64,000 bases of DNA from Candidatus Hydrogenedentota bacterium (GCA_963745075.1 CAVUWV010000012.1:32001-96000); one strand, 5' to 3'. Shown: positions 1,492 through 40,139, numbered from the stretch's first letter. Notes: a model not told the origin generated them from the sequence alone. Numbers and translations: made by a program.

Positions 1492-1493
1492 CG

Positions 1494-16475: not shown

Positions 16476-16503
16476 AGGTGCGGTTTTGCGGTGTCTTCCC
16501 GGA

Positions 16504-18297: not shown

Positions 18298-21200
18298 AAA
18301 TGCTCGCCGCCTACCAAGTGTTGTGCGATGGCTCGTCCGAGCCTTCGTGGCCTCCGCATGTCTGATCGTATTGTCGTTATTGGCCATCAATTCCGGTCCC
18401 GGAAAACGATGGCTCGCGTCTTACTTGTCTGAGACGCTCTCCGCAAATCCGCGATTGGATTTCCAACTAATCGGACTTCACGGCACGCTGCCAAGCTCCA
18501 TACGCCTGGAGTCCATTAACGTCAGCGACAGCGCCGGCACGATCGCGTCAGCTCGGGACGTTTCGGCGCGCTGGTCGCTTTGGTCCATTCTGCGGGGTCC
18601 CTTTCACGTCTACGCGGTTTCCGTGAACGACGTAGCAATTCTGAAACGACCGCCCCCCAACCCGGATGCACGACCCTTGGATATTGTGCGCGCGATACCA
18701 AAGGCCCTGCGCGGCGTGCGCGTCGACTCGTTTACGATCAACCAGTTGGCAGTATCTGAGGCCGTGGCGGGGAAGCGCGCGACGTTTCGCATCGACGGCC
18801 ACTTGGCCGGAAAGACGGTGGAGGAATTAGTTGCCGCGTTGGACGTCGTTCGTACTGATGCGCCAACGACCTCTGCGACGTTGACCCTGAATCTCGGCGG
18901 CGGCGCCTCGACGCTGGGGCTTGCCGCGCGCGTGGAAGATACCGCATTCCTGCCTGAGCTCGTGGGCGCGGAAGGCCAGACGCCGTTCGTCTTCACCGTC
19001 GACGGGGACGGCGATTCGAATTCGTGGACCGGAAAAGTCGATGGCTCTCTCGGTGGCGCGTCGTTCGTGAATGCCGATCTGGAACTCGCCGTGGGCGATA
19101 CCATCCAAGGGTCCCTCGACGGGATTTTTCACGCGAGCCGTCTTCCTCGGGCTGCGGCGCTAAGCGAACGGCTTGGCGAGGTCGTCGCATTTCAGATTGA
19201 CGGTCAACGACGATCGGACGGCTCCGTTGCTCTATCCCCAATCAAGGTCAGCGGCGGTGGATCGGAATTTGCCGGGCAACTTGGTTACGACGCCAAAGCC
19301 GATACGGTGGACCTTACCGTCGACCTAACCACGGAATCTCTTGCGCGGGTTCTTGGGGTAACCCGCAATGGCTTGAACCAGCCCGCGCAGGGGACGGTTT
19401 CGCTGAAGGGGCCGTTAGCTACACCCACCCTAAGCACGCGACTCAGTGTATCAAGAACTCCGTTGCTCGCGGTGGATGGTGATTTGGATTTGCGAGAGGG
19501 CTACGGCTTTGACCTGGACGTCGCCGCGTGGCCAAAACCGCCGCTCATCCCAGAGAAGGCGGGAGAGGCAATCGCCGACGGTGTAAACGGTCATGTGGCG
19601 GGGATGCAACGGGCGGATGGCTCGCTGCGCATAGATGAGTCAGTACTCCACGTAGCCGGCGCCCGGTTGGGCTTCAACGCCGACATGAACGCGGGATCCC
19701 ATCAATTGGCCGCCAGTGTGAATCTTTCCGATCTCGACATATCGAAGCTCGCCGGACTTGTTCCGGATGGCAGCACGGGGATCGTTTCGTTGCAGGGGCG
19801 GATTGACGGATCGAAGGATGGATGGAACGCAAATGCCACTATCTCGGGTACGAGCGTAGAAATCAAGGGAGCGACTACGGCCAAACTCAGCGGGACTTTG
19901 ACGGGTTCGGGACACTCTTGGAAGCCGTCAACCCTCGAAGGCATGAATTTCGCGGTTGATGCCTCGGCTGCGCCGTTTACACTAAACGAGCGCTCGCAGC
20001 CCGAACTTCGCTTGCGGGCAGAGGCAGCGATTCCCGAGGCGAATCACCTCCGACTGGCCAGTGCGAAGGTGGACTCGCGGGATCTGGCCATAAGCGCGCA
20101 TGGTGACTACAATATTAAGTCGAAAGGTGGTAAATTCGGGGTGAATTTGTCCCGGATCGACTTAGTCTTGTTCAAAGCGGCCGGACACTTGAGTGCCCAG
20201 GCGACCATCCACACCTCTACGGAGACGCCCGCTTCGGGCTCGCTCGACTTCCGCGTGGCGAACGCCGGCGGGCTCCCCGACCCGGTTCTGTCTCTGGTAA
20301 CCGAGCAGGTCGATGGGAAGGCCACGTTTACCCTGTCGGACAATTCACGACTCGCAATCGACAACGCAACGTTAGAAAGCAGTGCCATGTCGGCGAGTGG
20401 CACGGGGGTGTTGGACCTGATAGAGAAGACGATGCAGACGGATACATCGTTTCGCGTGCCCAATCTGGCAGTATTGTCCGAGCCGATGGGGCGCTCGCTT
20501 GGAGGCGCAATCGCGGCGTCGGTATCGACGAAAGGGCCTTGGGACGATTTCGCGGCCACGCTGGCGATCGATGGAGATGCACTGGTCGTTGACGACGCGA
20601 AAGTGAGTCACGCGGAACTGCGGGGAGAGGTGAGTGGACTCCCCGCGACTCCTTCTGGCGACGCAACGCTGCGATTATCGCGTGACGATGAAGCGCTCTC
20701 GGTGGAGGCCGCATTTGCCTTCGCGAAACCCAACCTCACGGTTCCGAATTTCACGATTGAATCGGGTTCGAACCAGGTACGCGGCAACGTCGAGTTCGAT
20801 GTGGAGAGCAAACATGGGCAGGGGGCCGTAACGGGGGACCTTCCCGACTTGTCCGCCGTAGGCCGGATGTTCGATGTGAACCTGGCCGGCGGGATGAAGG
20901 TAAACGCTGTTCTTGAAGGACCGCCTGATACCGAACATCTAAGAGTGGACTTGAATGGCGCCCAAATCGGCTTCGCGGACGTTTCGGCAGGCGCCGTTCA
21001 GGCGAACGCTGATATCAACGACCCTTTCGGCAATTGGTCGGGCGCGATCCAGGTTAAGGGCCAAAGTCTCGAGGCCGGCGACGCGAATCTTGCGGGGTAT
21101 TCCGTGGGGATGAAGGGCGATAAGAACACCGCGGAATTAAGAATGGCAATCAATGAAGGCACCGTCCGCGAATGGCCGGTAACATTGAAGACCGGGATGA

Positions 21201-23064: not shown

Positions 23065-23430
23065 TTATAACCGGATAATCACGTCGTCCTTGTGCAGACG
23101 CCAGGCGACCGCATAGTTAAACAGAGAGAAAAGTACAAACCCTACCAACGCCCGAATGACCCCGCTGTCCTCGGGAAACAATTTGACGTGCTCGGAGAAT
23201 TGCGGAAACGTCTTGTACATCTCCAGCAGGCAGAACTGAACGAGATAGATCGTCAGGGGGTTCTTCCCTATGATGCTGAATCCGGGGAATTGAAACTTGG
23301 CCATCTCGTTGATCGCGTAAAACAGCGCCAACGTCAGGAAGGACGTTCCCGCCGATCCGATGGTATAGGACGACAGCATCGCGCGTTGGGTGAAGTGCCA
23401 GGGCTCTTTGAAATTCGTGATCGTATCCAG
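23065..23430 (-). pseudogene. 3' remnant of a multi-pass membrane protein (DUF5009/HGSNAT-like acyltransferase)
   Basis: PWHFTQRAMLSSYTIGSAG..., IIGKNPLTIYLVQ, AWRLHKDDVIIRL resemble the C-terminus of this family. Only about 120 codons remain, with no recognisable 5' part. Confidence 0.5.
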
Positions 23431-24192: not shown

Positions 24193-27100
24193 ATGATGGG
24201 CAAAGGGGACCGTGGTGCGAATGGGGTCGTCTGTCTATTCGGCGTATTAGCGGCGGCGGTTTTTTTGATTGGCGCTACCGGAATTCCGGGGCAGGGCTAC
24301 CAGAAGGCGAATGCGTCGGATTTCGGAGTAACACGGGATACTCAACTGGATCGGGGACCTGCTGACCCCGTATCAATCGAGACGGAAGGTGCGACCGTCG
24401 ATCCGCAGGCTCATGCCGCGGTTCAGCAGTTTATGTCAGGTTCATCAGTCTTCATCAAAAACGAGGGGCAATGGCCGGACGATTCGATTGCGTTCGCTCT
24501 GGATGGTTCCGGCGCCAACGTCGGGCTGACGGACGCGGGTCCTCGCTTTCAACTGTTTCGCGCTATGACAGCGCCGACAAGCTCACTTGCGCCGTCCGAC
24601 CCGAACCAAGTTCTTTCGGAAGGCGCCACCACCGCAATGCGGGAATTTGGTGTCGTCTTTGACGGCGCGGCCCGCGTAACGCCCACCGGCCACGACCAGG
24701 CCGCCCGTACGTTCAACTACCTCCGGGGTGACGTCGCTCTTCATCGGGAAGGCGTCCCCTCTTACGCATCCGTATGGTACGAAGACTTGTATCCTGGCGT
24801 GAATCTCGAACTGACCGGCAACCGATCCGGCATCAAGTACAACTTCCACATCGCGCCCGGCGCGGACTGGCGCACGATCCGCGTCCGCTACGACGGGATC
24901 CAGGGACTGTCGTTGCGCCCGGACGGCGCGCTCGAAATTCGCATCGCCGACGGCTGGGGCATCCTCACCGACGCCGTGCCCTACATTTACCAAGAAGTCA
25001 ATGGCGCGAACGTGGAGGTTCCCGGCCGATTCGTTCTGTTGGACGACCGTACCTGCGGTTTTGAGATCACAGGGAATTACGACTCGGCATTGCCTCTCAC
25101 TATTGACCCGGTTGTCGACTGGGGAAGCTACTTGGGCGGAACTCTGCAGGACGAAGCAAACGACGTTGCCGTAGATGCGAGCGGGAATGTTTACGTCGCT
25201 GGGCATACGCAATCATCGGGTTGGGTGAGTGGTGGCTGGGACACGGTTCTCGACGGGACTCAAGATGCCTGTGTCGTGAAGTTAGATCCAACGGGTGGCC
25301 ACCTTTGGTCAACATACGTGGGTGGCGCGGATTTTGAGCGGGGCTGGGGTATTGCGGTAGACGGAGATGGCAACACGTACATAACGGGAGAGACTTATTC
25401 GGCAGGCTGGGTAAGCGGAGGTTGGGACACTTCGTACGGGGGCGGTGGAGATGGTTTTCTCGTCAAGCTTGCCACTGATGGCACGTATGCTTGGTCTACT
25501 TACCTTGGCGATACGAATTACGAAGTCGGCTACAGCATTGCCGTGGATCCGAACGGCAATGTATACGTGACGGGAGAAACCCAGTCATCGGGTTGGGTGA
25601 GCGGTGGCTGGGACACGACCTATGCCGGCGTCGGTCGGGATGGCTTCGTGGTGAAACTAGACGCGACCGGCAGTCACGTCTGGTCCACCTACCTGGGCGC
25701 GATTGGTAACGAATACGGTTACGGCATTACGGTGGATGGCGTTGGGAATGTCTTTGCTACCGGATCCACTGGATCGTCCGGTTGGGTCAGCGGCGGCGGC
25801 GATACCACGTTCAACGGTGGTACCGATATCTACGTCGTTGATCTTCGGCAGCTGGCGCTCACGTGTGGTCCACCTACCTGGGCGGAAGTTCTGACGACTA
25901 CGGTCGCGGCATAGCTTTAGATGGAAGCGGCAACATCTACGTTACGGGAGACACCCAATCCGTAAGTTGGGTCAGCGGGGGGTGGGACAGCGTCATTGGC
26001 GGTCCGCAAGATGCCTTTGTGGCGAAGTTGAATTCGTCAGGCACCCAACTCTGGTCCACCTATGTTGGGGGTACGAGCGCCGAGATTGGCTACGGTATTG
26101 CGGTCGATGGAAGTGGCAATGCGTATGTGACCGGGCGAACGCAGTCCTCAGGTTGGGTCAGCGGCGGTTTCCTGACCACCTATGCGGGGGGCAGTAATGA
26201 TGCCTTCATAATCAAGTTCTCGACATCCGGTTTACACGTTTGGTCCAGTTACTTGGGTGGGGGGGATGTTGACTTTGGTTACGGCATTGCGGTCAATGGC
26301 AATGTATACGTTGCAGGGACAACGGGCTCCGGGGGCTGGGTGAGTGGAGGATGGGACACCGTTTTTAATTCTCAAGACGGCTATGTGGTCCAAATCTCGC
26401 AACTCACCGACCTCGCAGTTGCGCCGAGCAATCCTGGCGCGACGGCGGTCGATACCGATCGTATCACTTGGACGTGGCAGGATAATTCGGACAACGAGAC
26501 CGGATTCAACGTATACGATGATCCGGGTATTGGCCCTCCCTCCACTTTGCAAACTACGACCGCGGCTGATGTCACTTCGTGGCAGCATACCGGTCTATCG
26601 GTTAATACGCGGTACGCACTTCAGGTGACTGCGGGAAACGCCAACGGAGATAGCGCGGGCACTCCCAATTTTACGGCGTATACCGGAATCGAGCCGGTTT
26701 CTTCGTTGATCTTCTCGAGTGTCAGTGCGAATGGAATCAGCGTAGCGTCTGCGAATCTGCCCAGCAATCTTGCGAGCGGCTCCTCCGGTCTCTATTTTGC
26801 CAATACGTCCATTGGTACCAACTCGGGGTGGCAGAAAGATAACACGGCGTGGAATTCGACGGGTCTTGTTCCAAATACGCCATACACATTCACCGGAGTT
26901 TCCCGGAATGGCGACGGACTTCAGACTGTTCCCTCCTCGCCGGTAGTAAAGTACACACTTGCGGTTACCCCGGTCGCACCGCTGGTGTCGGTTCCGGCGA
27001 ACCACGCGACGGCGGTCCACGCGCTGGACGTGGTCATTGGACCCGGCGACGGAAACCCCGTGGCGACGGAATACGCCATTCAGATTTCTCCGTCCGTTGG

Positions 27101-30100
27101 CGGAAATTCGTGGGTGCAAGCCGACGGCACGGTGGGAGCTTCACCGGTATATCGGTTGGCACCGGCATGGGATGCCGTGCGTGTGACAGGATTGGCAAAG
27201 GCAACCACCTACACATTTACCGTCATCGCCCATAACGGCGACAACGTCGATACGGCCTTCGGCCCCGGTGGTGTGGCTACTACGGCGGACAATGCCCCAC
27301 CGAGTGCGCCGGTGTTGAATTTCCCGACGGTCCAGAGCACGAGCGCGAACCTGGTGTGTTTCGTCGCGTTCCCCAGCACCGACGCGGATGGCGACACCAT
27401 CCTTTACGAATACGACTGGTACGTGAAATACAACGGCTTCCCGAGCTTTGTCTTGTTCCAGAACGGGGCTCCGGAGGCGGCGTTGTCGAGCCAGGTGAAC
27501 TACACGGACACCGTACCCGGCGACGTGTGGTATTGCGTGGTCACTCCGCACGATGAAGAGGAAGCGGGCACGGCGGCCACGAGCCCCAATTGCGATGTCG
27601 TGCTGGGCGGCATTACGCCATCGTTTATCTCGCTATCCGTAGCGCCTACACCGGTGACCCTGGGCCAGTCCGTTACCGCGTCGGGGTTCGTGTTCCCGAC
27701 GCCCAGCGGCAGCCCGAACGTGACCTTCTCGAGCACGTCGCCCTCCGGCGTTGTATCGGGGGTCTTCCCCGAAGGCACGCCGCTGTCGGGTGGCGCGTAT
27801 AGCAAGACCTTCGTACCGACCGAGGCGACGGAAGGCCGCGACCCGTGGAAACTGACCGCGTCCTGGGACGGGGACAGCACCTTTACAGCGGCGACCAGCG
27901 CTGAAGTAAGCTTCAATGTGCTGAAGGCGTCGCCCGCGGTCGAACTCAGCTTGAACGCGACCGCCGTACCGCTTGGATACAGCGACCTGGTTGCGACAGT
28001 CCAGGTGTCGGCGCCTATCCCCGCGTCGCTGAACGGCCTGTTGTCCGGCCTTTCCGTGCAACTGTTCGCCCGCCTGCCGGACGGCAGTTCGCTCTGGTCG
28101 CCGGGTAGCGCGCCGACGGCCATAACCGATGCCGATGGGATCGCCGTATTCTCGGCCGCGGAATTGGCGACGGCGGGGCTGGATTTGTCGACAGCGGGCA
28201 CCTGGCAGTGGCGCGCGGACTTCGCCGGCAACGACAACTTCACGACCGCCTCGTCTCCGGCCTACGACCTGTCCACTTCCGTTCGGTTGACGGTTCGTGA
28301 CCGCGCCGGTTATGCGATAATCACGGTGGGTCGTCTGGACGTATCCGGTGAAGGCATCGCCGAGCACAACAAGACGGCGGACTTCGTCTACCGCGCATTG
28401 CGCGATCGCGGATTCCCCGATAACGACATCTACTACCTGCGCCAGGGGGTTGTGCCGGCAACGCCGGAATACCAGGACATCATCGTGGACGATCCAACGC
28501 CGACGCAGGCCGAAGTGCAGTACGCGATAAGTCAGTGGGCCGCCGCGCAAGTGAACGCATCGGCCGCGCCCGTGTACGTCATCTTCGTGGACCACGGAAG
28601 CCCCGAGCAGTTCTACCTGTATGCCGGCGACCTCGGCGAGGCGCTTGTCATTACTCCGGAAGAGCTGGACAGCTACTTCGATGTATTGGAGACGAACATT
28701 GGCGCCAAAGCCACGACCCCGGACACGGATCGGTTCTTCATATACGGCGCCTGCCGGTCGGGTAGTTTCATTCCGGCCATGTCGGCCCCGGGCCGGACGA
28801 TCATCACGAGCAGCGCCGCGGACGAAGTCTCGCACCGGGGCGTCGTCGATCCCTCGGACGGGGTGCGTGACGGCGAGATGTTTATTACGGAGCTGTTCCG
28901 GGGGTTGCGTGACGGCAAGACGTTTAAGGAATCCTTCGAACACGCCTCGGACCAGACCCGCGATTATACCCAGGGTCCGGCCAATGGCGCCGGCGAACCG
29001 CCGCAATCGCCCATGTTGGACGACAACGGCGACGGAACGGGTTCCAGCGGAACCTTGTCCTTTGCGCCGGGCGAGGACGGCGGGAGGGCCAATGAACTTG
29101 CGCTCGGCTATGGCGTGAACGCCGGCGGCGAATTCGCCAGTTGGCTGGCGGCCACCTCGACCATTGTACTTGGGCCGAGCGATCCGATGCCGACCATTGA
29201 AGCCCTTACCGACAAGCGGCCCGCCACTAATGTGGAGGCATGGATCGAGGTCAAGTCATCGACCTATGCGGGCGACGACATCGCCGATCCAGGCTTTGAG
29301 GATTCCCAGGAAGTGGTCAATTTGACGGTAATCCCGGCAGACCTGGGCAGTTCCGACATCACCAACGGCATCTTCCGTTGGCCCTTGACGGCTCCGGATC
29401 AGGTTACGTTGTTCTCGGCGCCGGGTACCTACGCCGTCTATTACTACTTGCGAGACGGTGGAGACGGGAACGGTGCGGGAGACGTGAGCAGCTATCTGCT
29501 CACGACGGTGTACCGGCAACAGGCCGGAAACCAACCCCCGCTGCCGGTAACGCTGGTTTATCCCGCCGATGGGGCCCAACTTCCGACGACCGTATTCTTC
29601 GCGTGGGACGAAACGACCGATCCCGATGGCGACGCGGTCACCTACCGCCTGGAGGTGGCGGAGGATCTTGCGTTCTCCACCGGGCTTATCGTCCGTGAGG
29701 GCGTGACGGACACCTTGGTGCAGTTGACGGAATCCGACGGAATACAGGATCTCACGACCTACTATTGGCGCGTCATCCCGGTGGACGAATACGGGGCCAG
29801 CCCGACGTCCAACGCGGTGCGGACGTTCACGACGAACAACAGCAATCCCGACGCCTCGTGCGCTATCCAGGGACGGATCAAGAGCGCCGTCGACGGTTCG
29901 GCTCTATCCGGCGCAACGGCGACGTTGACACCGGGGTTTGTCAATTTCACGACCGTATTCAACGGCCAGTATCGCTATCTCTACCTGGCACAAGGCACGT
30001 ATACCGTGCAGGTTACTGCACCCGGTTTTAAGACCGGGTCGGCCATCCTGACCCTTTATAACGGTCAACAGCGCACCTATGATTTCACCCTACAGCCATT

Positions 30101-30668
30101 GACGGGAGCGGTGCAGGTGACCATCACACCCGCGGCCGCTCGTACCGAGGGAGCACAATGGCGAGTGGACGGTGGTCTGTGGCACGACAGCGGGTACATT
30201 GTTAACGGCCTGCCCGTCGGCGACCATACGATCAGTTACAAGACATTAACGAATTGGGCGGCACCTGCCAATAAATCGGTAACGATTCAATCCAATCAAA
30301 CGACATTGACTACGGGGGTCTACACGACCGGGACGGGCTCGTTGAAAGTTGTCATTACGCCGCAACAGGCGATTGACCTGGGTGCGTTGTGGCGCGTGGA
30401 CGGGGGCGCGTGGCAAAGCTCCGGAGCCACGGTCAGCGGTTTGTCGTTGGGAACCCATACGGTGGAGTTCAAGCCCGTGACCGGGTGGTTCACGCCGTCC
30501 AGTCAGCAGGTAGATTTGACCCTGAACGCGACGTTACAGACCGACGTTACATACTACGAATTGACATCATTGCCGTTAGGCTGGATGTCGGTGGCTGGTG
30601 TCATGATGCTGGTCGGATGCCTTGCATTAGTCCGCCGGCAAAAACGGGCTCATGGCGGGGAGTTATGA
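24193..30668 (+). CDS. Giant cell-surface protein: SBBP beta-propeller + FN3/Ig + C13-like (legumain-type) peptidase + C-terminal anchor (one frameshift ~25843)
   Basis: Signal peptide; WSTYLGG / IAVDGSGNxYVTG / SSGWVSGGWDT repeats continue across the frame junction; WQDNSDNETGF (FN3); FVDHG...YGACRSGSF dyad; two WRVDGGxW repeats; SLPLG + TM + RRQKR tail. About 2150 aa when repaired. Confidence 0.85.
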
Positions 30669-30760
30669 CAAGAGGCCTGTTGTTGACGCAGGCCGAAAGG
30701 AGCGTTCTCATTGCTTAGGCGTCTGAGCACGGCAATGAGGACGTCAGCGGTGGAGACCCG

Positions 30761-32827
30761 ATGCCTCGTGGATTAGTATTTCGACTAGGGGAAGACCGGG
30801 CGTTCTGGACTGCCGTCCGGGACGAAGGCGCCCCCTTCTCCATTCGGATTGGTCGTGGGCGGGAAAGCGAATTGATTCTTCCGAAGCGGTTGCCGGCGGA
30901 AGTTCGCGAAACGGTGTCCCGCGCGCACGCCCGTGTTTTCCGGAATCGGAAGACGTTGCGCATCGAAGACCTCGGCTCGGTTAATTTTACTTACGCCAAC
31001 GGCCAGATCGTGCTTGCCCCCGTCGAACTTGTTTTGCCAGCAACGATCCGGCTCGGTGAAGTCACGTTATACGTCAATCACGAGCCCATCGGCGCCGAAT
31101 CGCCTGATGCAAGCCAAACGACCGGTACGTGGACGTTGGAGGTGACTGGCACCCGCAGCGCATTTCTCGACACACCTCCGCAAGCCATGGCGGCAGCCTG
31201 GCGAGGGGTGTCCGACCGGCTGCGTTGGTCCAGCATAGTTTTTGAGGTGGCCGAATGTGTCAACGCGGCGCGGCGCGCGGAGGAAGTCGAACTATACCTT
31301 CGCGCAATCCTGGCTCAGCAACTTAACGTACGCGACATTGCCGTCCTGTGGTCTGTAAGCCCGTCGCGTTCACAGGCGGCCTTGGAAGCGTTGGGGGTGC
31401 CAGGTGATTGGGCTGCCGGCATCCAGCAGCAGCTTGCGTCGTTGCGCGACGGGAACCCCTTGGTTTCGCTTGAACTTCCAGCGCGAACCGCTTCTGCTTG
31501 GGCCGTTCGGTCTTTTGACACCGCGGATCCCACGTTTACCGTGCTGGTTGCGTGGCCGATCAATGGGAGGGCCAAAATCCCTCCGGAGGATATCGGCACG
31601 GTCCTGGCGCTCTGTTTGCGTGTCGTTCAACCGACCCTGAGTGCGCTTCGGGAATTAGAGTCGCGTCGGGCGTCGGAGATCCAAGCGCTTCCGCATATGC
31701 CTTCGGAGGAAATGCTGCGTATCTGCCGCGATCGTCACATGTGGGGCCGTTCTCCGGCATTTCTCAAAGCGCTCTACTATGCCGAACATGCGGCGACCCG
31801 ATACTTGGGCATGCATCGGCCGGATCAGCGTCTTTCCTCCGTTTTCGTGCTGGGTGAAACGGGCACGGGGAAAAGCGCGTTGGCGCGTCTGATTCATCAC
31901 CTCTCCAAGCACAGCGAGGAGCGTTTTGAAGAACTGAATTGCGCGGCGATCCCGGTGCCCCTGGCAGAATCGGAACTGTTCGGATACGAGAAAGGCTCCC
32001 ACGACAAAGCGTTCAGTGCGAAGGAAGGGCTTTTCGAAACTGCGAATCGAGGGACGCTATTCCTGGACGAAATCGGGAAGACCACGAAAGAGTTTCAGAG
32101 CAAACTGCTCAAGGTTCTTGATACGGGTGAATACCGGCGTTTGGGCGGGAACCAGTCCCGCCAAACGTCATGCTATGTAATTCTGGCCGCCAGCGAGGAC
32201 CCGGAATTCCTGATCAAAGAGGGAATACTTCTTGAGGAACTTTGGTATCGAACCGGCGCCTTTACCGTCACCCTACCACCATTGCGTGAACGCGGTCAGG
32301 ATTTGGATTTGCTCGTCGAGATGGCCGTTGAACATCTGGGGCAATCGCACGAGACCGGCCAATCGAAGCGTGTATCGCCGCAAGTATTGGCCCTGTTTCG
32401 CGGTTATCACTGGCCGGGGAATGTCCGGGAACTCATGCAATACCTGGATGTCGCTCATGCGTTGGCGCCATCCGACGCGCCGGAAATAGACGTTGCGCAC
32501 TTGCCCGAGAATCTGTTGCGAAGTCTTGGTGTACGTCCTGCGACGGAAACCACACGACCGGGCTTGGATACTACCAAGGCCTGGGATGAGGTCATTTCGG
32601 CGGTCGAGCGCGAGTATCTCGTATGCCTGGTTCGCGAATGCGAAGGTAACCTTATGGAAGTGGCACGCCGTTCTGACAAGGCGTACCAAACGATTCACAC
32701 CAAGTTGAAGCTGTTTCGCGGCTGGCTCGACGAAGCGGCGACGCCGGAGCGCGAGGCGGAAAAGAATCGCCTGCGATCGCTTGCCGACGCCTATTGGAAC
32801 GTCATCGAAAAGGGGGCGACGCCATGA
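30761..32827 (+). CDS. FHA-domain sigma54-type enhancer-binding protein (AAA+, Fis-like HTH)
   Basis: FHA motifs IGRG, VSRAHA, DLGSVN; Walker A GETGTGKS; NCAAIP..LAESELFGYEKG; Walker B FLDEIG; WPGNVREL; HTH GNLMEVARR. Confidence 0.9.
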   Translation: MPRGLVFRLGEDRAFWTAVRDEGAPFSIRIGRGRESELILPKRLPAEVRETVSRAHARVFRNRKTLRIEDLGSVNFTYANGQIVLAPVELVLPATIRLGEVTLYVNHEPIGAESPDASQTTGTWTLEVTGTRSAFLDTPPQAMAAAWRGVSDRLRWSSIVFEVAECVNAARRAEEVELYLRAILAQQLNVRDIAVLWSVSPSRSQAALEALGVPGDWAAGIQQQLASLRDGNPLVSLELPARTASAWAVRSFDTADPTFTVLVAWPINGRAKIPPEDIGTVLALCLRVVQPTLSALRELESRRASEIQALPHMPSEEMLRICRDRHMWGRSPAFLKALYYAEHAATRYLGMHRPDQRLSSVFVLGETGTGKSALARLIHHLSKHSEERFEELNCAAIPVPLAESELFGYEKGSHDKAFSAKEGLFETANRGTLFLDEIGKTTKEFQSKLLKVLDTGEYRRLGGNQSRQTSCYVILAASEDPEFLIKEGILLEELWYRTGAFTVTLPPLRERGQDLDLLVEMAVEHLGQSHETGQSKRVSPQVLALFRGYHWPGNVRELMQYLDVAHALAPSDAPEIDVAHLPENLLRSLGVRPATETTRPGLDTTKAWDEVISAVEREYLVCLVRECEGNLMEVARRSDKAYQTIHTKLKLFRGWLDEAATPEREAEKNRLRSLADAYWNVIEKGATP

Positions 32828-33047
32828 GTTCCAAGGGCATCAGGCTCGAACGAAATGCGCGGCTGTCGGCAAGACTCTCTTTCCATAAACTAGATAGCTT
32901 GACGGTGTCGCTATCTAAACATTGGATAGCGGGTCGCCGCAAATACTCAGGTTCTCTCTTTTCCGAATGCCATCTCTTGTTTCATAAGATATTATATTGC
33001 ATTGCTTTACATGTCAATGCGTGTTTTGCGGTTCCAAGTTCCAGATC

Positions 33048-33064
33048 TTGGCACAGACGTTGCT
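33048..33064 (+). promoter_or_regulatory. Sigma54 (-24/-12) promoter
   Basis: TTGGCACAGACGTTGCT matches TGGCAC-N5-TTGCW with exact GG-N10-GC spacing; preceded by an AT-rich tract. Confidence 0.8.
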
Positions 33065-33127
33065 CTTCTACTGGGCGTCAGGGAAATGAACCCGCAACGC
33101 AGTACGTAGCCAGGGAGATTAGGAACT

Positions 33128-33292
33128 ATGAGCGCAAATCAGAAAACTCGGTTGATGATTGCGGCCATGGACCTGCTGAAGGTTCTCGACCGCCGCGAGG
33201 TGTCGGAAGGCGAACTGCTCACGCGTGTCGCCTCCATGTACTACGAGGTGGGGAACGCGCGGAGACATCTTCTCGTGTTGTCGGAGTCTTAA
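33128..33292 (+). CDS. 54-aa small helical protein (absent from the ORF track)
   Basis: GGGAGATTAGGAACT-ATG; MSANQKTRLMIAAMDLLKVLDRREVSEGELLTRVASMYYEVGNARRHLLVLSES*; first ORF after the sigma54 promoter. Confidence 0.55.
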   Translation: MSANQKTRLMIAAMDLLKVLDRREVSEGELLTRVASMYYEVGNARRHLLVLSES

Positions 33293-33519
33293 GAATACGC
33301 CGGTGGTGGGTGCCGAAGGTCGCTACGATGAACGGCAATCTTCTCGGTAACGTTTGGAGTCAGGGTGTGCGGTGCGCGTTTCGGACGCGCGCCGTTCATT
33401 CTGTAGTCTTGGTGGCGCCATAATAATGATGCGGTTGGCGCAACCCGGGAAGAGTTACGAGAAAAGCTGGGACATGCGGAGGACGCTTGGCGCGGTCCTG
33501 GCTCAGAAGGATTTATGTC

Positions 33520-35952
33520 ATGGCCGATGACGTTCATACGCGAAAAGCATGGAACGATTCCGCCGATGCCCGGGACTCGGCGAGTACGCCTACGCCGTCT
33601 CCGGATTTTGATGGCATTCCTTCAACCAGGATTACCAAGTGGACCATTAGCGGGGAACAGTTGTTGGGAAGTCAGATCGACAACTTCCGCGTCGAAGGAA
33701 TTGTGGCCCAGGGCGGTTTTGGGTTGGTGTGTAAGGCGACCGATGTGAAGCTGAACCGGGTCGTCGCACTCAAGTTTCTCAAGAACCGTCTTGACGAAAA
33801 GCATTTTCAACTTTTTGAGCGTGAAGCGCGCATCCTTGCCCGGCTGGGCAAGGAACCGTCCATTGTGGAGGTCTATGCGTGGGGTGAATACCAGGGGTAT
33901 AATTATTTTGCGATGGAGTATCTTCCGCTTACGGCGGACGCAATCCTGCAGAAACACCCCACCGGATTAAACCCCGCGCGAGCCATCGAGATCGTTGCGG
34001 ACTGTGCCGAGGCGCTCGCCTCGGCCCATCGCGAGGGAATCGTTCACCGGGACATCAAACCCCCGAACATCCTGCTGGATAGCGAAGAGGGCCGGGCCAA
34101 ACTGGCCGACTTCGGGTTGAGCCGGATCTTGGAATCAACCGAATCCATCATTGGCGGAACGATCAGCGGTTCGCCGCCGTACATGTCTCCCGAACAAGCC
34201 TCCGCGGAACCTGCCGACCATCGATCGGATATCTTCTCCCTCGGGGTGTCCCTCTACGAACTTTTGTGCGGAAAACGGCCGTTCGAAGCGGCGTCTTCCG
34301 GAGAGTACCTCGAAAACATCCGAAACAATATCCGCGTGCCGTTGGCAAAACGCAGAGTCAATCTGCCTCCGAACGTAATCCAGGCGGTCGAACGCGCAAC
34401 CAGGCATGCACCGAAGGATCGTTTTCAATCGGCCGAGGAATTCGCTTGCGTACTCCGCGGCATCCTGGCGACGTTGCCGGACTACGTGGAAACCACGATC
34501 TCGGGGCGAGTGGGAACTCGGTTTGGGCAACGAGTGAGGTTCTTGCGGAAGCCCATTCTCTGGGGTTTGGCGGCGGTGCTCGTGTTTGTGTCCGGCCTGT
34601 GGTTCACGACGTCCAGGCCGTTACCCGAAATTACGACGGACCTGAAAGTTGCCGACGCGGCTCTGGACCAGGGTGATGCCGTGGCTGCCGCGGCCCGCTA
34701 TCAGAAAATCCTGGCGAAGGATCCGGCCAGCGATCCGGCGCGTTACGGGTTGGCATACGCGTTCTTGCGCCAGGGGAAACTCGATGACGCCGCTGGAGCT
34801 TTCGCGGACCTGAATAATGAGTCGTTGCGTGTGGAAGGCAATGCAGCCGTCGCCTATGCGGAAAACGGGGCCGAAGCCGCGCCGGTAGTCGAAAAAGCCG
34901 TGGGAAACGCTCAAACCGCGTATCTGCAGGCGCTGGGATGTGCAATTGAATTGGATCTGGCGCAGTACTCGAAAGTGGTGTCTGTTGGAAAAGGACTGCA
35001 AGATGCATCGTTCCCGTTTGAGTGGCAGCGAGCGGAATTGCTTCAGGCTTTGGGTCAAGCGTACTACCGGCTGGGCAACTTCGCGGACGCCAAGGCGATC
35101 TTCTCTCGACTGAAACCGCTGACCTCATCGGCGCCAGAGGTGGCGAACGCCTATTTGCGCTTGGCCAATGCCCGGCTCGACGAACAGTTGCAGGACAAAG
35201 CCTTAACGCGCGCAGCCGAAATTCGCGACCTTATAGACTCCGGAGCCGTTCCGGTCATGGAAGATCAATGGTCCAGTCGTCCGCTCACGTTTGTCCTGCT
35301 GCCGGTGGAAGCCAACCCAAGCGACTATGCAAATCGGTCCGGTTTGGTGGACGTGCTACCGATGCTCTTGGGTGAGGAACTTGAAAGTCGAACCGCCCTC
35401 AACCTTGTGGATCGCGAGTTGATTGGCGAGGTGCTGGCGGAACAGAAATTGTCCGCGCTGCTGAGCCAACAAGCGGGGCAACTTGAGTTTGGTCGAATAC
35501 TCGGCGCGCGTCTCATCATGCGGTGCATATTTGGAAGGCTCGGCGGTTCCGAATTCGTGAAAGCGAAGGTTGTAGACGCGGAAACCGGTGAGGAAGTGAT
35601 TGTGCCGCGTGTCGATCTCCAGCGGTCCACGAGTCCCGACGCGCTCTTGGGTACTCTCGCGGACGAAATCGGTCACGCCGTGAAACAGCACTACCCGTTG
35701 CGCGCCCGACTCACCCGAGAGGGCGACCGTGCGCGGATTGACATTGGATCTTCTGAGGGCGTTCAACCGGCAATGCGTTTTCAGATCGCCGTCGGCGCCG
35801 ACCGATCGACTCTGATCCCCGACCGTCTGGCAATCGTTGAAGAACCTGTGGATGTCGAGTCGGCACACGTCCGGGTGGACGGCTTCTCTCCGGCCGATAT
35901 CCCGGAGGATGGTCTTTATGTCGTTCAACAGAACGTGACGGAGCAGCGGTAG
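33520..35952 (+). CDS. Membrane Hanks-type Ser/Thr kinase with extracytoplasmic TPR, CsgG/HfaB-like and FlgT-C-like domains
   Basis: QGGFGLV, VALK, HRDIKPPN, DFG, YMSPEQ; TM ILWGLAAVLVFVSGLWF; TPRs; LVDRELIGEVLAEQKLS...GRILGA; IDIGSSEGV. Confidence 0.9.
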   Translation: MADDVHTRKAWNDSADARDSASTPTPSPDFDGIPSTRITKWTISGEQLLGSQIDNFRVEGIVAQGGFGLVCKATDVKLNRVVALKFLKNRLDEKHFQLFEREARILARLGKEPSIVEVYAWGEYQGYNYFAMEYLPLTADAILQKHPTGLNPARAIEIVADCAEALASAHREGIVHRDIKPPNILLDSEEGRAKLADFGLSRILESTESIIGGTISGSPPYMSPEQASAEPADHRSDIFSLGVSLYELLCGKRPFEAASSGEYLENIRNNIRVPLAKRRVNLPPNVIQAVERATRHAPKDRFQSAEEFACVLRGILATLPDYVETTISGRVGTRFGQRVRFLRKPILWGLAAVLVFVSGLWFTTSRPLPEITTDLKVADAALDQGDAVAAAARYQKILAKDPASDPARYGLAYAFLRQGKLDDAAGAFADLNNESLRVEGNAAVAYAENGAEAAPVVEKAVGNAQTAYLQALGCAIELDLAQYSKVVSVGKGLQDASFPFEWQRAELLQALGQAYYRLGNFADAKAIFSRLKPLTSSAPEVANAYLRLANARLDEQLQDKALTRAAEIRDLIDSGAVPVMEDQWSSRPLTFVLLPVEANPSDYANRSGLVDVLPMLLGEELESRTALNLVDRELIGEVLAEQKLSALLSQQAGQLEFGRILGARLIMRCIFGRLGGSEFVKAKVVDAETGEEVIVPRVDLQRSTSPDALLGTLADEIGHAVKQHYPLRARLTREGDRARIDIGSSEGVQPAMRFQIAVGADRSTLIPDRLAIVEEPVDVESAHVRVDGFSPADIPEDGLYVVQQNVTEQR

Positions 35953-35954
35953 AC

Positions 35955-38522
35955 GTGCGCAGACTAGGAATCAGTGTCGCATTCGCAGCGTTAACCACAT
36001 TGCTGCTTGCTCCGGGGTGTACGACCATTTCTTCTCAATCGGCGCAGTATGAGCGCAACGGCGTGCGATACGGGGTTACGAAGGGCACGTTTCGCGGACG
36101 GTGGTGGAACTACTACGAACGGGGCCGTTCCTTCTCCGACGGCGCGTTCTGGTCCGAGGCGGAAAGTGATCTCCGGACGGCATTGGCTTCGCGAAGCCGG
36201 GACCAACTCTGGTCGCGCACGTACGGCCTGCACTTTTTGCCTGAGTACTTTCCCCATCGCGAACTGGGCATCGTATTCTTTCATCAAGAACGCTTCGACG
36301 AAGCAGCAGCAGAGTTGGAGACGAGCTTGGCGCAGCAATACTCTGCGCGCGCAGCGTATTTCCTCAACGAGGCGCGTCGCGAACAGATCGCGAAAATCGC
36401 CAACGATCGCGAACCGCCAACGATCACCTTACAATTCTCCGAAGAAACCGGGGTGATCGATTCGCTAGAGATTGTTCCGAAGGGGGTTGTTGAAGACGAC
36501 ACCTACGTCTCACGCCTGACGATCGATGGACGGGATGTACCGCTTCAAGTTTCCGCGCCCCGAATCGAATTTCCGGGACCTTTGGTTACCGATTCTTTCC
36601 ACGTGACACTGGCCCCTGGCAGAAACGTCGTGGAGGTAGAGGCGGAAGACCTGTCCGGAAAAGTCACCCAGCGGCAAATCATCCTAACGACTGACGTCGA
36701 CGGCCCGGCGGTCAGTTTTAACGCCCCCGTCGTGGTGCCGGGAACTATCCGAGGCGTGGCGCTGGACCCCTCCGGAGTCAAGGCGTTGACTATCAACGGT
36801 CAGAATGCGGCACTACAGCGTACTGCGCGAGAGCAGGTTGCTTTTGAGGTGAAGGTAACGTCCGCAAAACCCGATAGCCCCCTGCAATACGAGTGCACCG
36901 ATGAGAAGGGAAATGTCACCCGGGGACGGGTTCCCGTCAATGGTCTTGTTTTGTCCAAGACCATTCCTGCGGTTATGCCTGCGAGCAACGGCGTTTCTGT
37001 CGAACGGTTAGGGCCGGGGCTTGCAGGCCTGAACGTGAACGGCGTTTTGGTGGCGGTTGCAGCAGATGCGCGGCACGCTGCGGAGCCGGAGATTCGCTTT
37101 CCAAACCTGCGCGACGGGCAACAATATCTTATGGACGAGGTTATTGTGGGCCTCGACGTGGCCGCGCCCAACCCCATCGCAGAAGCTCGCATTAACGATG
37201 TCGATTTGAATCTTGCGCCGGATCGTTCTCTGCAACATCTCAGCCGTCGGCTACGCCTTGTGCCCGGGCCAAATGTCATTCACGCGGACGTCCGAGATGC
37301 GCAGGGGAAGACGTCGAAAGCCAGTCTGACCGTTGAACGGAAATTCACCGATCTGGAGCAGCGCGTCAATCACCTTAACGCCGCGATTCTGGGATTCGTA
37401 GCGGAGGGCAATGCGCCGCGAGTCGATGACGAACCGGATTTTATTCGTGATGAACTGATCGGTCAGTTGAGCCGACAGAATCGGTTCCAATTCGTCGATC
37501 GGAGACTTCTTCCGGACGTAATCGCGGAGCAGCAACTCAGTGCGGCGCTGAGTTCGAAGGAGGGCCGGCTCGCCTTGGGCCGGGTCATTCCCGCGGAGAT
37601 CTTCTTAACCGGTCGCATTCATCGCGACGCCGATTCGATCGAAATCGTTGTCGAAGCAATCAGTACCGAAACCGCATTGTTTGTCGCCCGGAGCGACGTT
37701 GCGGGCCGCGCCGACACGCCGGACGAACTCGAAGGACTGGTTCGCGATCTCGCGTTGCGGATCGTACAGGAGTTTCCGCGCGTCCAGGGTGAGGTGGCCA
37801 GGGTTCGGGGAGAGCCCCCGTCGCAACGGGTTCGGCCGACCGTGGCCATTCCTGCGAGTCAATGGGATACCGCCGGGGTATTAACCGCAGATGAATTGAC
37901 GTGGGTCATCGACGAATTTGAGCGGGAATTGCAACAGGCAAACCGATTTAATTTCGTGAGCCGGGACAGGCTCGATACGATTCAGCGCGAAACAAGGCTT
38001 AGCGAGACGTTGGGCCCGGAGGAAAAACGCCTCGCGCTCGGAAGAATTCTGCCGGCAGATGTGCTGCTGGAAGTCCAGTTTCAGCGGGTCGCCGGAAACG
38101 TGACGGCAGTCGGCGCGTCGATCGACACGCGTACCATGGAAGCGACGATTCGTCATACCGTTTCACAGGCGGCGAGTGACGAAGACGGGTTTCGAAACCT
38201 TGGGCGCTATTTGGCGCGGGAACTGCTTCCGTTACTTCCAACCGAGGGACGTTATGACGATGCGGGGCGTAGCGCGCCGCGTATCACCGCCACGCTCACG
38301 AGCAAGCAAGGCGTAAGCGAATCGATGAAATACGTCGTCTTTCGATACGGACCGGAGATCCTCGATCCGATAACGAAGGAAGTCATCGGACAGGAGACCG
38401 AAATCGTTGGCGAAGGACTTGTGCAATCCGTGAATGACTCGTCGAGCGTCGCCGAAATGCTCTCGACAAACGCGGCGCTTCCCGTTCCCGTTCGGGCAGG
38501 TGATTATGTGGCAACAAAATAG
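35955..38522 (+). CDS. Lipoprotein with TPR, Ig-like and two CsgG/HfaB-like domains
   Basis: Lipobox LLLAPGC; TPR (HRELGIVFFHQERFDEAAAELE); Ig motifs (LAPGRN, LVPGPN); FVDRRLLPDVIAEQQLS and FVSRDRLDTIQRETRLS. Confidence 0.8.
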   Translation: MRRLGISVAFAALTTLLLAPGCTTISSQSAQYERNGVRYGVTKGTFRGRWWNYYERGRSFSDGAFWSEAESDLRTALASRSRDQLWSRTYGLHFLPEYFPHRELGIVFFHQERFDEAAAELETSLAQQYSARAAYFLNEARREQIAKIANDREPPTITLQFSEETGVIDSLEIVPKGVVEDDTYVSRLTIDGRDVPLQVSAPRIEFPGPLVTDSFHVTLAPGRNVVEVEAEDLSGKVTQRQIILTTDVDGPAVSFNAPVVVPGTIRGVALDPSGVKALTINGQNAALQRTAREQVAFEVKVTSAKPDSPLQYECTDEKGNVTRGRVPVNGLVLSKTIPAVMPASNGVSVERLGPGLAGLNVNGVLVAVAADARHAAEPEIRFPNLRDGQQYLMDEVIVGLDVAAPNPIAEARINDVDLNLAPDRSLQHLSRRLRLVPGPNVIHADVRDAQGKTSKASLTVERKFTDLEQRVNHLNAAILGFVAEGNAPRVDDEPDFIRDELIGQLSRQNRFQFVDRRLLPDVIAEQQLSAALSSKEGRLALGRVIPAEIFLTGRIHRDADSIEIVVEAISTETALFVARSDVAGRADTPDELEGLVRDLALRIVQEFPRVQGEVARVRGEPPSQRVRPTVAIPASQWDTAGVLTADELTWVIDEFERELQQANRFNFVSRDRLDTIQRETRLSETLGPEEKRLALGRILPADVLLEVQFQRVAGNVTAVGASIDTRTMEATIRHTVSQAASDEDGFRNLGRYLARELLPLLPTEGRYDDAGRSAPRITATLTSKQGVSESMKYVVFRYGPEILDPITKEVIGQETEIVGEGLVQSVNDSSSVAEMLSTNAALPVPVRAGDYVATK

Positions 38523-39912
38523 GTCAGGATTTCGAGGCCTTGTTCGCACGCTGCCGGCGGTTCTCCTGTTGGCGGCGGGGAGTGCGTTTTGCTCGGCGCA
38601 AGAACTCGAAATCGCGATCTCGCCCAGTCCTGTGGGATCGGGGGCACGGGCCGCCGGTATGGCCGACGCCTTTGTGGCCATCGCCGATGACGCGACGGCC
38701 GCTTCCTGGAACCCCGCCGGTCTGGTCCAACTGGAACGGCCGGAATTATCCATTGTGGGGGCCTATAACGGTCTCGTCGAAGACTTTCGCGCCGACTGGC
38801 ACGACGAAGTCGATTCCAGGCATAGCGATGACAATCTCGATTTGAACTTTCTCAGTTTCACGTACCCGTTCCCCGCTTTGATTCTAGGGCGAAATTCCTC
38901 CGTCGGTCTGTACTATCAGCACAAATACGATCTCTCGCGAAAGTTCAAACTGGATTTCAATCAATCGACCGTGGGATCAGACGGTATCGTATTCAATAAT
39001 TTTTCCGAACTCGATTTCAAACAGGACGGTGCGCTCAGCGCCATCACGCCCGCGTTCGCCTTCGAGGTAACGCACCGCCTGGCCCTCGGGGTGGCGGTTA
39101 ATCTCTGGCGGAGCAGCATCTTCTCCGAAAATGGATGGACGCGTGACCAGCGCGATCAGACGTTTTCCCATTCGGCAAACGGCGGCGGGCTGGCGATTAC
39201 GAGTCTCCATGAGAAGTACGAGGATGTCGAGGGCGAAAATCTAACGGTTGGATTGCTTTGGAATGTCACGGACAAGTGGAGCATCGGAGTCCGGTACGAC
39301 TCCGCGTTTACCGCGGATAGCGATTATACGCGACACGGTTCCACGCTCCAGATCAATCTGCCTCAGAACAGCCGGGCCATGAGCTATTTTCCGAAAAATC
39401 GAAAGTCGAATCGCGAGATTCGCTTGCCGTCAACGGTCGCGGTCGGCGCCGCCTATCGCGCAAACGACCGACTCACACTATCATGCGATGTCACCACCAC
39501 GGACTGGAACGACTTCTGGTTCAAGGACGAAAGCGGGAATCGCAAGTCCCTGGTCAACGCGCGCAATCTGGATCAAGTCTGGTTTGCACCGCACTTCGAG
39601 CCCACCTATACCGTCCGTCTCGGCGGGGAGTACGTCTTTATTCCGAAGCAGCCGGATGAAGTGCTGGGGCGTATTTGGACCCTCCGTGGCGGCTTGTTTT
39701 ACGATCAGGAGCCGGCATCGGGAGGTCCGGATAACTTCTGGGGTGGCGCGGTAGGTGTGGGCCTGTTGGCGAAAGAGCGAGTCAATGTCGATCTCGCCTA
39801 TCAGGTGCGTTACGGGCACGAGGTAAACCACGACTTCGTCCGCGGCGTTCCCGGTTTTGATGAAGACGTAATTCAGAGTCGATTTCTCATATCAACGGTC
39901 ATCTACTTTTAG
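38506..39912 (+). CDS. FadL/OmpP1/PorV-like outer-membrane beta-barrel
   Basis: Signal peptide; GARAAGMADAFVAIADDATAASWNPAGL; amphipathic strands; terminal Phe (TVIYF). ATG 38506 overlaps the end of the upstream gene. Confidence 0.85.
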   Translation: MWQQNRSGFRGLVRTLPAVLLLAAGSAFCSAQELEIAISPSPVGSGARAAGMADAFVAIADDATAASWNPAGLVQLERPELSIVGAYNGLVEDFRADWHDEVDSRHSDDNLDLNFLSFTYPFPALILGRNSSVGLYYQHKYDLSRKFKLDFNQSTVGSDGIVFNNFSELDFKQDGALSAITPAFAFEVTHRLALGVAVNLWRSSIFSENGWTRDQRDQTFSHSANGGGLAITSLHEKYEDVEGENLTVGLLWNVTDKWSIGVRYDSAFTADSDYTRHGSTLQINLPQNSRAMSYFPKNRKSNREIRLPSTVAVGAAYRANDRLTLSCDVTTTDWNDFWFKDESGNRKSLVNARNLDQVWFAPHFEPTYTVRLGGEYVFIPKQPDEVLGRIWTLRGGLFYDQEPASGGPDNFWGGAVGVGLLAKERVNVDLAYQVRYGHEVNHDFVRGVPGFDEDVIQSRFLISTVIYF

Positions 39913-39923
39913 AGGAGGGGTTC

Positions 39924-40139
39924 ATGAAACACATCCAAGCCTTATCTCAAGAGCGCCCGGCGATGGCGCAGTTCGAGCCGATTCTTCAGTTCATCGGAAT
40001 CATCCAATCCATTCTCGGCACGCCGGGAATCGTCATCCAGAATGTGACGGCGGCCATTGGTGTGTTTGGCACAGCGATTTCCGTGCTGCAAAACTGGCAA
40101 TTGCTGCAGCAATTGAAGGCCCAAAACCAAGGCGAGTAA
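39924..40139 (+). CDS. 71-aa amphipathic/hydrophobic peptide
   Basis: Strong RBS AGAGGAGG; starts 11 bp after the barrel gene stop; polar leader ending RPAMA, then an I/V/G/Q-rich core. Confidence 0.75.
   Translation: MKHIQALSQERPAMAQFEPILQFIGIIQSILGTPGIVIQNVTAAIGVFGTAISVLQNWQLLQQLKAQNQGE

Follow-up and report, generated by a model that had tools for sequence, protein, structure and literature searches.

The locus at positions 24193 to 40139 of a 64,000-nucleotide stretch of DNA from a Candidatus Hydrogenedentota bacterium (GCA_963745075.1, CAVUWV010000012.1:32001-96000; the whole stretch is referred to as the window) raises the question of whether seven neighbouring genes make up one system and, if so, what that system does. 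The original prediction, made from the sequence alone, described a trans-envelope signalling or export system that comprised a C13 peptidase surface protein, an activator with an FHA domain, a kinase, a CsgG-like lipoprotein, a FadL/PorV-like barrel and a small peptide, with a sigma54 promoter ahead of the last four genes. The host genome measures 6.8 Mb and is 89.7% complete. All seven open reading frames (ORFs) were located on the + strand at the coordinates first assigned to them, and the tight coupling of the last four genes was reproduced, with gaps of 2 bp (kinase-lipoprotein), -17 bp (lipoprotein-barrel) and 11 bp (barrel-peptide) when ATG 38506 was taken as the barrel start. A fixed seven-gene system was not recovered. 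The conserved unit is the barrel, the lipoprotein and a receptor, and the remaining genes are variable add-ons; the seven-gene unit was rejected because the activator, the peptide and the C13 gene vary among loci while the trio recurs. Here the barrel, lipoprotein and kinase are read, with moderate confidence, as a cell-surface signalling relay that would work independently of TonB, likely a new variant of such signalling.

Recurrence of the barrel, lipoprotein and receptor genes

The receptor of the window is a Ser/Thr kinase (33520-35952, + strand) of the receptor-like Hanks type, in which the catalytic domain is followed by a transmembrane helix (residues 346-364), TPR repeats and a CsgG/FlgT-like module. 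The lipoprotein (35955-38522, + strand; Cys22) carries TPR repeats with a conserved hairpin, three Ig domains, two CsgG/FlgT-like domains and a FlgT C-terminal-like domain. The barrel (38506-39912, + strand) is a 14-stranded outer-membrane barrel of the FadL/BamG family with an N-terminal hatch.

Homologous loci were collected from a scan of species genomes (46 loci) and from 60 relatives, giving 62 genome loci after sequence de-duplication, five of them cut at a gene end; the nearest were in Candidatus Hydrogenedentota. The metagenome set was drawn from the best 80 of 255 loci and held 78 after de-duplication, of which 29 (the well-flanked loci) had 1.5 kb or more of sequence on either side. 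Some loci belong to both sets, kin within them are not independent, and prevalence counts apply within the order to which the window belongs.

The barrel gene lay no more than 3 kb from the lipoprotein gene in 53 of the 57 assessable genome loci (exceptions L023, L025, L045 and L111) and beside it in 28 of the 29 well-flanked metagenome loci. A receptor with a TPR and CsgG/FlgT-like ectodomain adjoined the lipoprotein in 33/62 genome loci and was present in 23/29 well-flanked metagenome loci. Among the 60 relatives, which again include kin, 34 had both lipoprotein and ectodomain, 21 had neither, two had the lipoprotein only and three the ectodomain only (ectodomain matches at E 1e-6 or better, after removal of cross-hits to the lipoprotein). 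Chance adjacency of the core genes was rejected, and the synteny expected of barrel, lipoprotein and kinase in other genomes was found.

Synteny of the three genes holds across several phyla. Of 8,000 scored candidates, 756 proteins fell in the lipoprotein family with E values no worse than 1e-40, and roughly 140 of the 150 best clusters (50% identity) matched over the TPR-containing region; a search of the Atlas with the lipoprotein N-terminus returned generic TPR clusters. The family spans records of Hydrogenedentota, Thermodesulfobacteriota, Nitrospirota and Myxococcota, and named homologues come from Desulfosarcina variabilis and Desulfonema limicola. In a quick tree the lipoprotein clades followed receptor type, with support for the kinase-linked (99) and the split-type (100) clades.

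A proposed relay from the barrel to cytoplasmic enzymes

Whole-model fold searches with the lipoprotein (mean predicted local distance difference test score, pLDDT, 86.9; predicted TM score 0.77) were dominated by Ig and TPR structures, and CsgG (Z 11.0, root-mean-square deviation 3.0, 134 aligned) and FlgT (E 4.9e-6) stood lower in the list. The lipobox cysteine was present in 65/65 sequences and the +2 residue was never Asp, which under the sorting rule of E. coli suggests an outer-membrane location. The barrel scored 60.2 bits against PF03349 (cut-off 29.7), and its model (pLDDT 85.1) had 14 strands. The nearest structures were FadL, TodX and TbuX, with BamG also among the top matches; TM scores were about 0.6 to FadL and BamG (0.55-0.62 and 0.60-0.62) versus 0.37 to PorV (8gl6_F). 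Pfam bore out most of the domain assignments first made (FHA-AAA+, kinase, CsgG-like lipoprotein, FadL), with C13 scoring just short of its cut-off, and the PorV-like label was dropped, the barrel lying below the PorV cut-offs.

The structure of the barrel was modelled together with residues 22-335 of the lipoprotein, and an interface was predicted with a score of 0.71, compared with 0.00 for the best of three controls. The mark for this score is reached by 116/157 solved complexes and 2/215 mismatched pairs, counts that are approximate for the alignments used. Runs shared no fewer than 89% of their contacts, and pLDDT for the partner was 79 or higher. Lipoprotein residues 44-50 and 79-94 were placed against short turns of the barrel and its hatch (32-33, 46-49), a face that reads as periplasmic in the model by strand count back from the C-terminal Phe. 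The top predicted pair joins the invariant lipoprotein R88 to barrel D292 (96% conserved). Conservation was higher at the interface than elsewhere on both partners (lipoprotein, 0.80 vs 0.47; barrel, 0.68 vs 0.55); within the barrel, the extracellular loops were variable (0.37) and the hatch was the most conserved part (0.86). The TPR hairpin of the lipoprotein is thus predicted to dock on the periplasmic turns and hatch of the barrel.

The same structural matches, the conserved hatch and the contact predicted there would also suit a FadL-type channel for a hydrophobic molecule, which the lipoprotein would take up under the hatch and pass to the receptor, so that the signal would be a compound. 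No recurrent lipid or aromatic catabolic genes were found among the neighbours scanned (selected ORFs), the genome has a second FadL-family gene unlinked to the locus, and FadL channels are described in passages of PMC12611786 as freeing cargo sideways into the membrane and not into the periplasm. A small-molecule channel is accordingly rated as quite unlikely.

At the other end of the trio, the kinase has the catalytic Lys, HRD, DFG and APE-like motifs, a single transmembrane helix and the ectodomain, and the catalytic residues were invariant in 31 sequences. Its CsgG/FlgT-like module is homologous to that of the lipoprotein (probability 98.7, E 1.7e-16). Word-based searching with the kinase ectodomain as query found nine kinase-type proteins only; the other receptor types came to light through the loci. 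The 33 genome loci held 22 kinases, seven cyclase+CHAT proteins, one TIR protein and three receptors cut off; the 78 metagenome loci held 15 kinases, nine cyclase+CHAT, four CHAT, four cyclase and one TIR receptor, with 19 cut off and 26 without any, many of these last on short contigs. The window kinase, 5/7 cyclase+CHAT proteins and the TIR protein have a transmembrane helix between the enzyme and the ectodomain; none was called in the other two cyclase+CHAT proteins. By pattern search, the CHAT Cys motif was present in 6/7 receptors and the His motif in 1/7.

The fused kinase type was found in 12 relatives; the others have the ectodomain as a secreted protein in its own right (630-695 aa), with its gene at another place in the genome. 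In 14 of 16 such loci, drawn from 25 genomes of this kind plus second copies, its gene lies directly 3' of a transmembrane Ser/Thr kinase gene. Loci L129-L143 and L148 hold a conserved operon for a secreted trypsin-TPR protein, a transmembrane Ser/Thr kinase and a secreted TPR-CsgG-FlgT_C protein, which is sometimes thioredoxin-like; this operon probably encodes the receptor in split form.

Proximity is known to activate kinases, class III cyclases, TIR domains and caspase-like proteases alike. Since one ectodomain is carried by kinase, cyclase, CHAT and TIR proteins, its fusion to four such outputs points to signalling rather than export as the function of the receptor and is the chief ground for that preference.

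Several further observations concern these outputs. In both TIR loci (L018:2959-6572; L244:3-3447) a gene with a TPR-S/MAP3K-TRAF-binding domain lies directly 5' of the TIR-transmembrane-CsgG receptor gene, which suggests that these loci use a nucleotide second-messenger step. In some Desulfobacterales (L022, L025, L026, P0212, P0271) the N-terminal TPR and Ig part of the lipoprotein is fused to a caspase (C14) domain, and one homologue, P0236, carries a TIR domain. An extracytoplasmic function (ECF) sigma factor gene adjoins CHAT-bearing modules in L016, L085, L240, L249, L256 and L268, together with a zinc-finger anti-sigma gene in L016 and L085.

Outputs of these kinds (TIR beside TPR-S, CHAT with ECF sigma and zinc anti-sigma factors, caspase fusions, kinases) are typical of conflict systems, and the distribution is patchy. 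According to PMC11506125, moreover, a Myxococcus defence island is under the control of a TPR-CHAT anti-sigma protein. An immune or damage sensor, in which phage adsorption or attack at the barrel would cluster the receptor and start a defence programme, is nevertheless judged very unlikely. One subtype is widespread across the order, and PADLOC gave generic kinase, AAA+ and cyclase matches with none for the barrel, the lipoprotein or the TIR receptor. No defence genes stood out among the scanned neighbours, for which no systematic island test was made.

The signalling relay would run as follows. The trio would span the envelope, with the lipoprotein plugging the inner face of the barrel, its TPR hairpin (residues 84-94) seated on the periplasmic turns and touching the hatch as predicted by the model. 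A ligand bound at the variable extracellular loops would shift the hatch; it would most likely be a surface protein or peptide, from the cell itself or from a neighbour, for example a piece released from a large surface protein such as C13, or an amphipathic peptide. The CsgG/FlgT-like domain of the lipoprotein would then meet the homologous domain of the receptor ectodomain and cluster the receptors. By what is known of the families concerned, clustering would turn on the cytoplasmic enzyme: the kinase in this locus or, in other loci, a cyclase, CHAT protease or TIR domain. In this lineage only, the phosphorylated kinase may engage the FHA activator, which would act at the sigma54 promoter ahead of a 54-aa gene and the core operon and so provide feedback.

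Several points weigh against this relay. The link between lipoprotein and ectodomain is drawn from gene order, co-occurrence and domain homology. A receptor gene is missing from six of the 29 well-flanked metagenome loci, four of which have C13 genes in its place. The lipoprotein was found in 0/5 same-genus genomes, and the module is therefore dispensable. Locus L111 has kinase and lipoprotein genes and no barrel; there (L111:1-570) a remnant of the peptide gene, without its start, comes immediately after the lipoprotein gene, an arrangement consistent with a deletion that took out the barrel gene. The docking model may lean on a likeness to the solved BamG-BamH pair, although that pair is extracellular and BamH has a different fold. 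Neither an activator orthologue nor a genuine FHA match was found in the 78 metagenome loci. The activator step could moreover be repression, or independent of sigma54, because the loop of the activator (GSHDKA) lacks the Phe and Thr of GAFTGA. The series first proposed, from barrel through lipoprotein and kinase to FHA activator, is supported in its first part by trio synteny and the barrel-lipoprotein prediction. For its last step FHA proteins do adjoin at least 8 of 23 fused kinases (selected neighbours scanned), and the activator itself is rare.

A more elaborate version of the relay is regarded as doubtful. In it the FadL-family barrel would be a ligand-gated receptor, the CsgG/FlgT-like domains of the lipoprotein would form a ring with those of the receptors and cluster the attached enzyme (kinase, cyclase, caspase-like protease or TIR), the cell's own MKH-leader peptide or C13 fragments would be sensed here, and the activator would still drive sigma54 despite its non-GAFTGA loop. 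That such a platform is a bacterial counterpart of the single-pass receptor families of animals belongs to this version and is offered just as tentatively.

Variable neighbours of the core

The C13 surface protein is encoded upstream by two ORFs on the + strand. The first (24193-25914) encodes a signal peptide, DUF7948 and SBBP beta-propeller repeats; the second (25863-30668) encodes SBBP repeats, Fn3/Ig domains, the C13 domain, CarboxypepD_reg, a C-terminal transmembrane helix and a basic tail, and has neither signal peptide nor ribosome-binding site. A single frameshifted gene coding for about 2,150 aa is the most likely origin of the pair: the two ORFs share 52 bp in different frames, the propeller repeat keeps its register past a break near 25840, and the signal peptide is found in the first ORF only and the transmembrane anchor in the second only. 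The break may be a real lesion or an assembly error; three low-share DNA sequencing runs yielded short pieces, none of which spanned it. A second surface protein of this kind, with an NHL propeller and C13 domain, appears to be split over three overlapping ORFs on contig C31 (294900-298600; L160) near another kinase. Repeated frameshifts in such genes may reflect assembly errors or phase variation.

The C13 domain scored 21 bits, just under its cut-off of 22.8, with the His-Gly and Cys motifs present; homologues elsewhere pass the cut-off. C13 genes were near the core in 4/62 genome loci and in 10/34 metagenome loci that spanned 10 kb or more; four of the ten had no receptor gene. Among relatives, C13 was present in 18/36 with the lipoprotein versus 1/24 others, often in many copies. 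The C13 enzyme had been proposed to process the substrate of the system; it is an accessory neighbour enriched near the core and a candidate partner, and not a fixed member.

This enrichment bears on a rival proposal, in which the barrel and lipoprotein, like PorV or BamG-BamH, would sort or anchor large surface proteins and the receptor would do no more than report the load. It would account for the C13 genes in long metagenome loci, including those without a receptor, for the excess in lipoprotein-bearing relatives and for the many other neighbours that are big secreted proteins; passages of PMC12611786 describe BamG as anchoring a surface lipoprotein. The receptor, however, co-occurs with the lipoprotein far more tightly than C13 does (the 34/21/5 split), and the lipoprotein is predicted to dock at the periplasmic face and hatch, not on an extracellular pillar. 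PorV membership of the barrel was rejected (NF033709, 55.2 vs 90; NF033710, 22 vs 250; PF19572, 15.9 vs 27), with a TM score of 0.37 to PorV against about 0.6 to FadL and BamG. From the FadL structure, a hatch-filled 14-stranded barrel cannot pass folded proteins of 150-250 kDa. The anchoring explanation is considered unlikely.

The 71-aa peptide (39924-40139, + strand) combines an MKH-type leader with an amphipathic core. The leader is shared by 16 other small ORFs of the genome (three with an MRRIK variant), 17 in all, with unrelated cores. These ORFs lie on contigs C8, C9, C10, C13, C15, C17, C18, C24, C30 and C36 (loci L149-L159); some cores are Cys-rich, several ORFs are in tandem, and two clusters sit behind genes for M4 thermolysin-like peptidases. 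Related leader ORFs scored weakly in many relatives in an alignment-based search that is circular for its seed genomes and was not used for counts. A conserved leader with a variable core could suit a precursor of ribosomally synthesised and post-translationally modified peptides; a scan of nine neighbours of other copies gave no exporter or modifying enzyme.

The peptide subfamily was found beside the core in 6/62 genome loci, plus one remnant, and in 9/78 metagenome loci, only in the kinase clade. It was in 0/18 cyclase, CHAT or TIR metagenome loci, and in 4/9 metagenome loci it lay on the opposite strand. The neighbourhood search seeded on the lipoprotein thus gave the expected co-occurrence for the barrel, CsgG-bearing kinases and C13 genes; for short peptides it did so within the kinase clade, and a CsgG/FlgT-bearing kinase was not universal (22/62 genome loci).

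These counts also bear on a closed peptide loop of all seven genes, in which C13 would mature the peptide, the barrel would export or sense it and the activator would close the loop. The loop would explain why the peptide recurs beside the core, the joint presence of C13, peptide and kinase in L201, and sigma54 boxes that track the activator. No other examined locus has all the parts, however, the peptide is confined as described, 16 further peptides share the leader with unrelated cores, and the C13 gene seems frameshifted here. This loop is rated as highly improbable.

The activator (30761-32827, + strand) is a lineage-restricted accessory with FHA, middle, sigma54-type AAA+ and helix-turn-helix domains in that order. 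Its AAA+ domain scored 158 bits (PF00158), the Walker A and B motifs are intact and the helix-turn-helix is C-terminal. An orthologue was found in 5/60 relatives. The sigma54-contact loop is GSHDKA, not GAFTGA; the pattern G[SA]H[DA][KT]A was seen in the five orthologues with a readable loop, and 17/18 loops found in this genome are GAFTGA-like. Passages of PMC3162934 state that changes of the loop Phe or Thr mostly abolish sigma54 activation.

The consensus sigma54 -24/-12 box (33049-33064, + strand; TGGCAC-N5-TTGCT) was upheld as a sequence match. The window holds this single match where 0.07 would be expected, and a match turned up in 7 of 100 shuffles. The genome has rpoN and 20 strict sites in its 6.8 Mb. 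Two overlapping inverted repeats (32891-32931, no strand assigned; 8-bp arms with an 11-bp spacer, 7-bp arms with a 9-bp spacer) lie 140-158 bp 5' of the box and are a candidate binding site for the activator. The half-site recurs 5' of 5/6 related sigma54 boxes, with nine copies in six non-window regions versus 1.1 in shuffles, the motif having been picked after these boxes were viewed; the 19 other strict sites of this genome hold eight half-sites. Relaxed boxes were found 5' of 4/23 fused kinases (about 0.6 expected), three of them in genomes with an activator orthologue, and boxes also adjoin the orthologue in L107, L002 and L078. Autoregulation of the operon, as first proposed, is favoured by sigma54 boxes with a shared half-site that track the activator and disfavoured by the replaced GAFTGA loop and the rarity of the activator.

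The first gene 3' of the box is a 54-aa ORF (33128-33292, + strand) with a ribosome-binding site, which starts 79 bp after the box start, precedes the kinase gene and does not figure in the original prediction. A homologue in L107 (32% identity over 41 aa, E 8e-6) lies behind a sigma54 box beside the activator orthologue. Three kinds of FHA protein were found beside kinases: this activator, an FHA-GAF activator with a near-canonical loop, and FHA-CHAT. A conserved ORF of 87-88 aa with a helix-turn-helix-like end lies between sigma54 box and activator orthologue in L002 (5704-6100) and L078 (2612-2200, - strand). Elsewhere in this genome, a strict sigma54 box with two half-sites lies just 5' of the rpoN region on contig C17 (about 66260, - strand) and another with two half-sites at C10:22643; both are possible members of the activator regulon.

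A scan for sigma70 promoters and terminators gave no more than chance. Further upstream, TamA-TamB genes (16465-23017) lie 1.2 kb from the locus and were not beside the core in the other loci scanned. A short ORF (23065-23379), convergent with tamB, resembles the C-terminal remnant of a membrane-protein gene and may mark the edge of an insertion, because same-genus genomes are without the module. Two MshEN (cyclic di-GMP-binding) proteins, one with HDOD, flank a coiled-coil and leucine-rich-repeat protein at 7807-14827, and a DUF1501-DUF1549/1553-WD40 cluster occupies 94-7790.

Comparison with known systems

Few routes are known for signals across both membranes of diderm cells, and the relay, if true, would add one, with a FadL-family barrel as a TonB-free receptor. 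Unexplained proteins annotated as 'CsgG/HfaB family' or 'TolB-like' would gain a role as coupling domains, and the swap of outputs on one ectodomain would recommend it as a plug-in scaffold for building synthetic sensors. A textbook rule would be put to the test by a conserved activator that tracks sigma54 promoters without a GAFTGA loop. The relay is testable because homologues occur in D. variabilis and D. limicola, both cultured.

The original prediction knew of no named system of this composition, and a search of the open literature (subscription journals and bioRxiv supplements lay outside its scope) likewise found no published description of the barrel-lipoprotein-receptor core. The main text and part of one supplement of an ECF reclassification paper (PMC7826278) gave no mention of CsgG.

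In Sinorhizobium meliloti the outer-membrane barrel receptor NsrA signals a protein ligand to the inner-membrane adenylate cyclases CyaK, CyaD1 and CyaD2 (passages of PMC7529298). Cyclase-type receptors occur in the present family too; unlike NsrA-CyaK, it has a FadL-family barrel with a hatch, a dedicated lipoprotein and a TPR and CsgG/FlgT-like ectodomain. The Sinorhizobium cyclases use CHASE2, according to parts of PMC13001267, and no CHASE2 match was found in any cyclase-type receptor scanned.

The TagQRST-PpkA-Fha1 pathway of the H1 type VI secretion system (T6SS) of P. aeruginosa joins an outer-membrane protein, a periplasmic link, a dimerising and autophosphorylating Ser/Thr kinase and an FHA target (passages of PMC10482370). 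The order of outer-membrane protein, periplasmic link, inner-membrane Ser/Thr kinase and FHA protein is shared here. TagQRST differs in having no barrel, in using the ATP-binding cassette (ABC) transporter TagST and in its output, T6SS assembly; the present locus has no ABC transporter, and T6SS TssC/VipB (PF05943) had no match in this genome at its 89.7% completeness, with the E. coli control matched.

Closer in barrel type is BamG-BamH of the Bacteroidota beta-barrel assembly machinery, in which a FadL-family barrel scaffolds a lipoprotein; in the solved complex, as given in parts of PMC12611786, BamH is extracellular. BamH thus binds on the outside and has another fold, whereas the present lipoprotein is predicted to be periplasmic, and the window barrel scored 62.6 against the BamG model NF053685, whose cut-off is 250.

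In the type IX secretion system, PorV is a 14-stranded barrel with a similar N-terminal motif and the clan CD protease PorU is nearby. The analogy first drawn to this pair was abandoned, as the barrel fell below all PorV cut-offs; unlike in that system, the C13 protein here is an accessory with its own transmembrane anchor. SprA (PF14349) had no match in this genome, nor in any control genome.

FHA-domain enhancer-binding proteins were reportedly described in Myxococcus xanthus by Jelsbak in 2005. The present activator resembles them in joining FHA to a sigma54 AAA+ domain in a kinase-rich genome and differs in its G[SA]H[DA][KT]A loop and in a gene tied to an outer-membrane module. The DdvA-DdvS system of M. 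xanthus has a membrane TPR-CHAT protein, a zinc-binding anti-sigma domain and an ECF sigma factor (PMC11506125), and the CHAT-type loci likewise hold a membrane TPR-CHAT protein, a zinc anti-sigma factor and an ECF sigma factor. In DdvA, CHAT is periplasmic and fused to the anti-sigma domain; here CHAT lies ahead of the transmembrane helix, on the side of the cytoplasm, and the module also has a barrel and a lipoprotein.

The relay may finally be set beside TonB-dependent signalling. In FecA-FecR-FecI, a ligand at a plugged 22-stranded TonB-dependent barrel is relayed through the periplasm to transcription. Neither a TonB-dependent receptor nor a FecR domain was found by Pfam among the window genes. 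The ECF sigma factors of the CHAT-type loci recall such signalling, from which the present family differs in a barrel of 14 rather than 22 strands and in its enzymatic cytoplasmic outputs.

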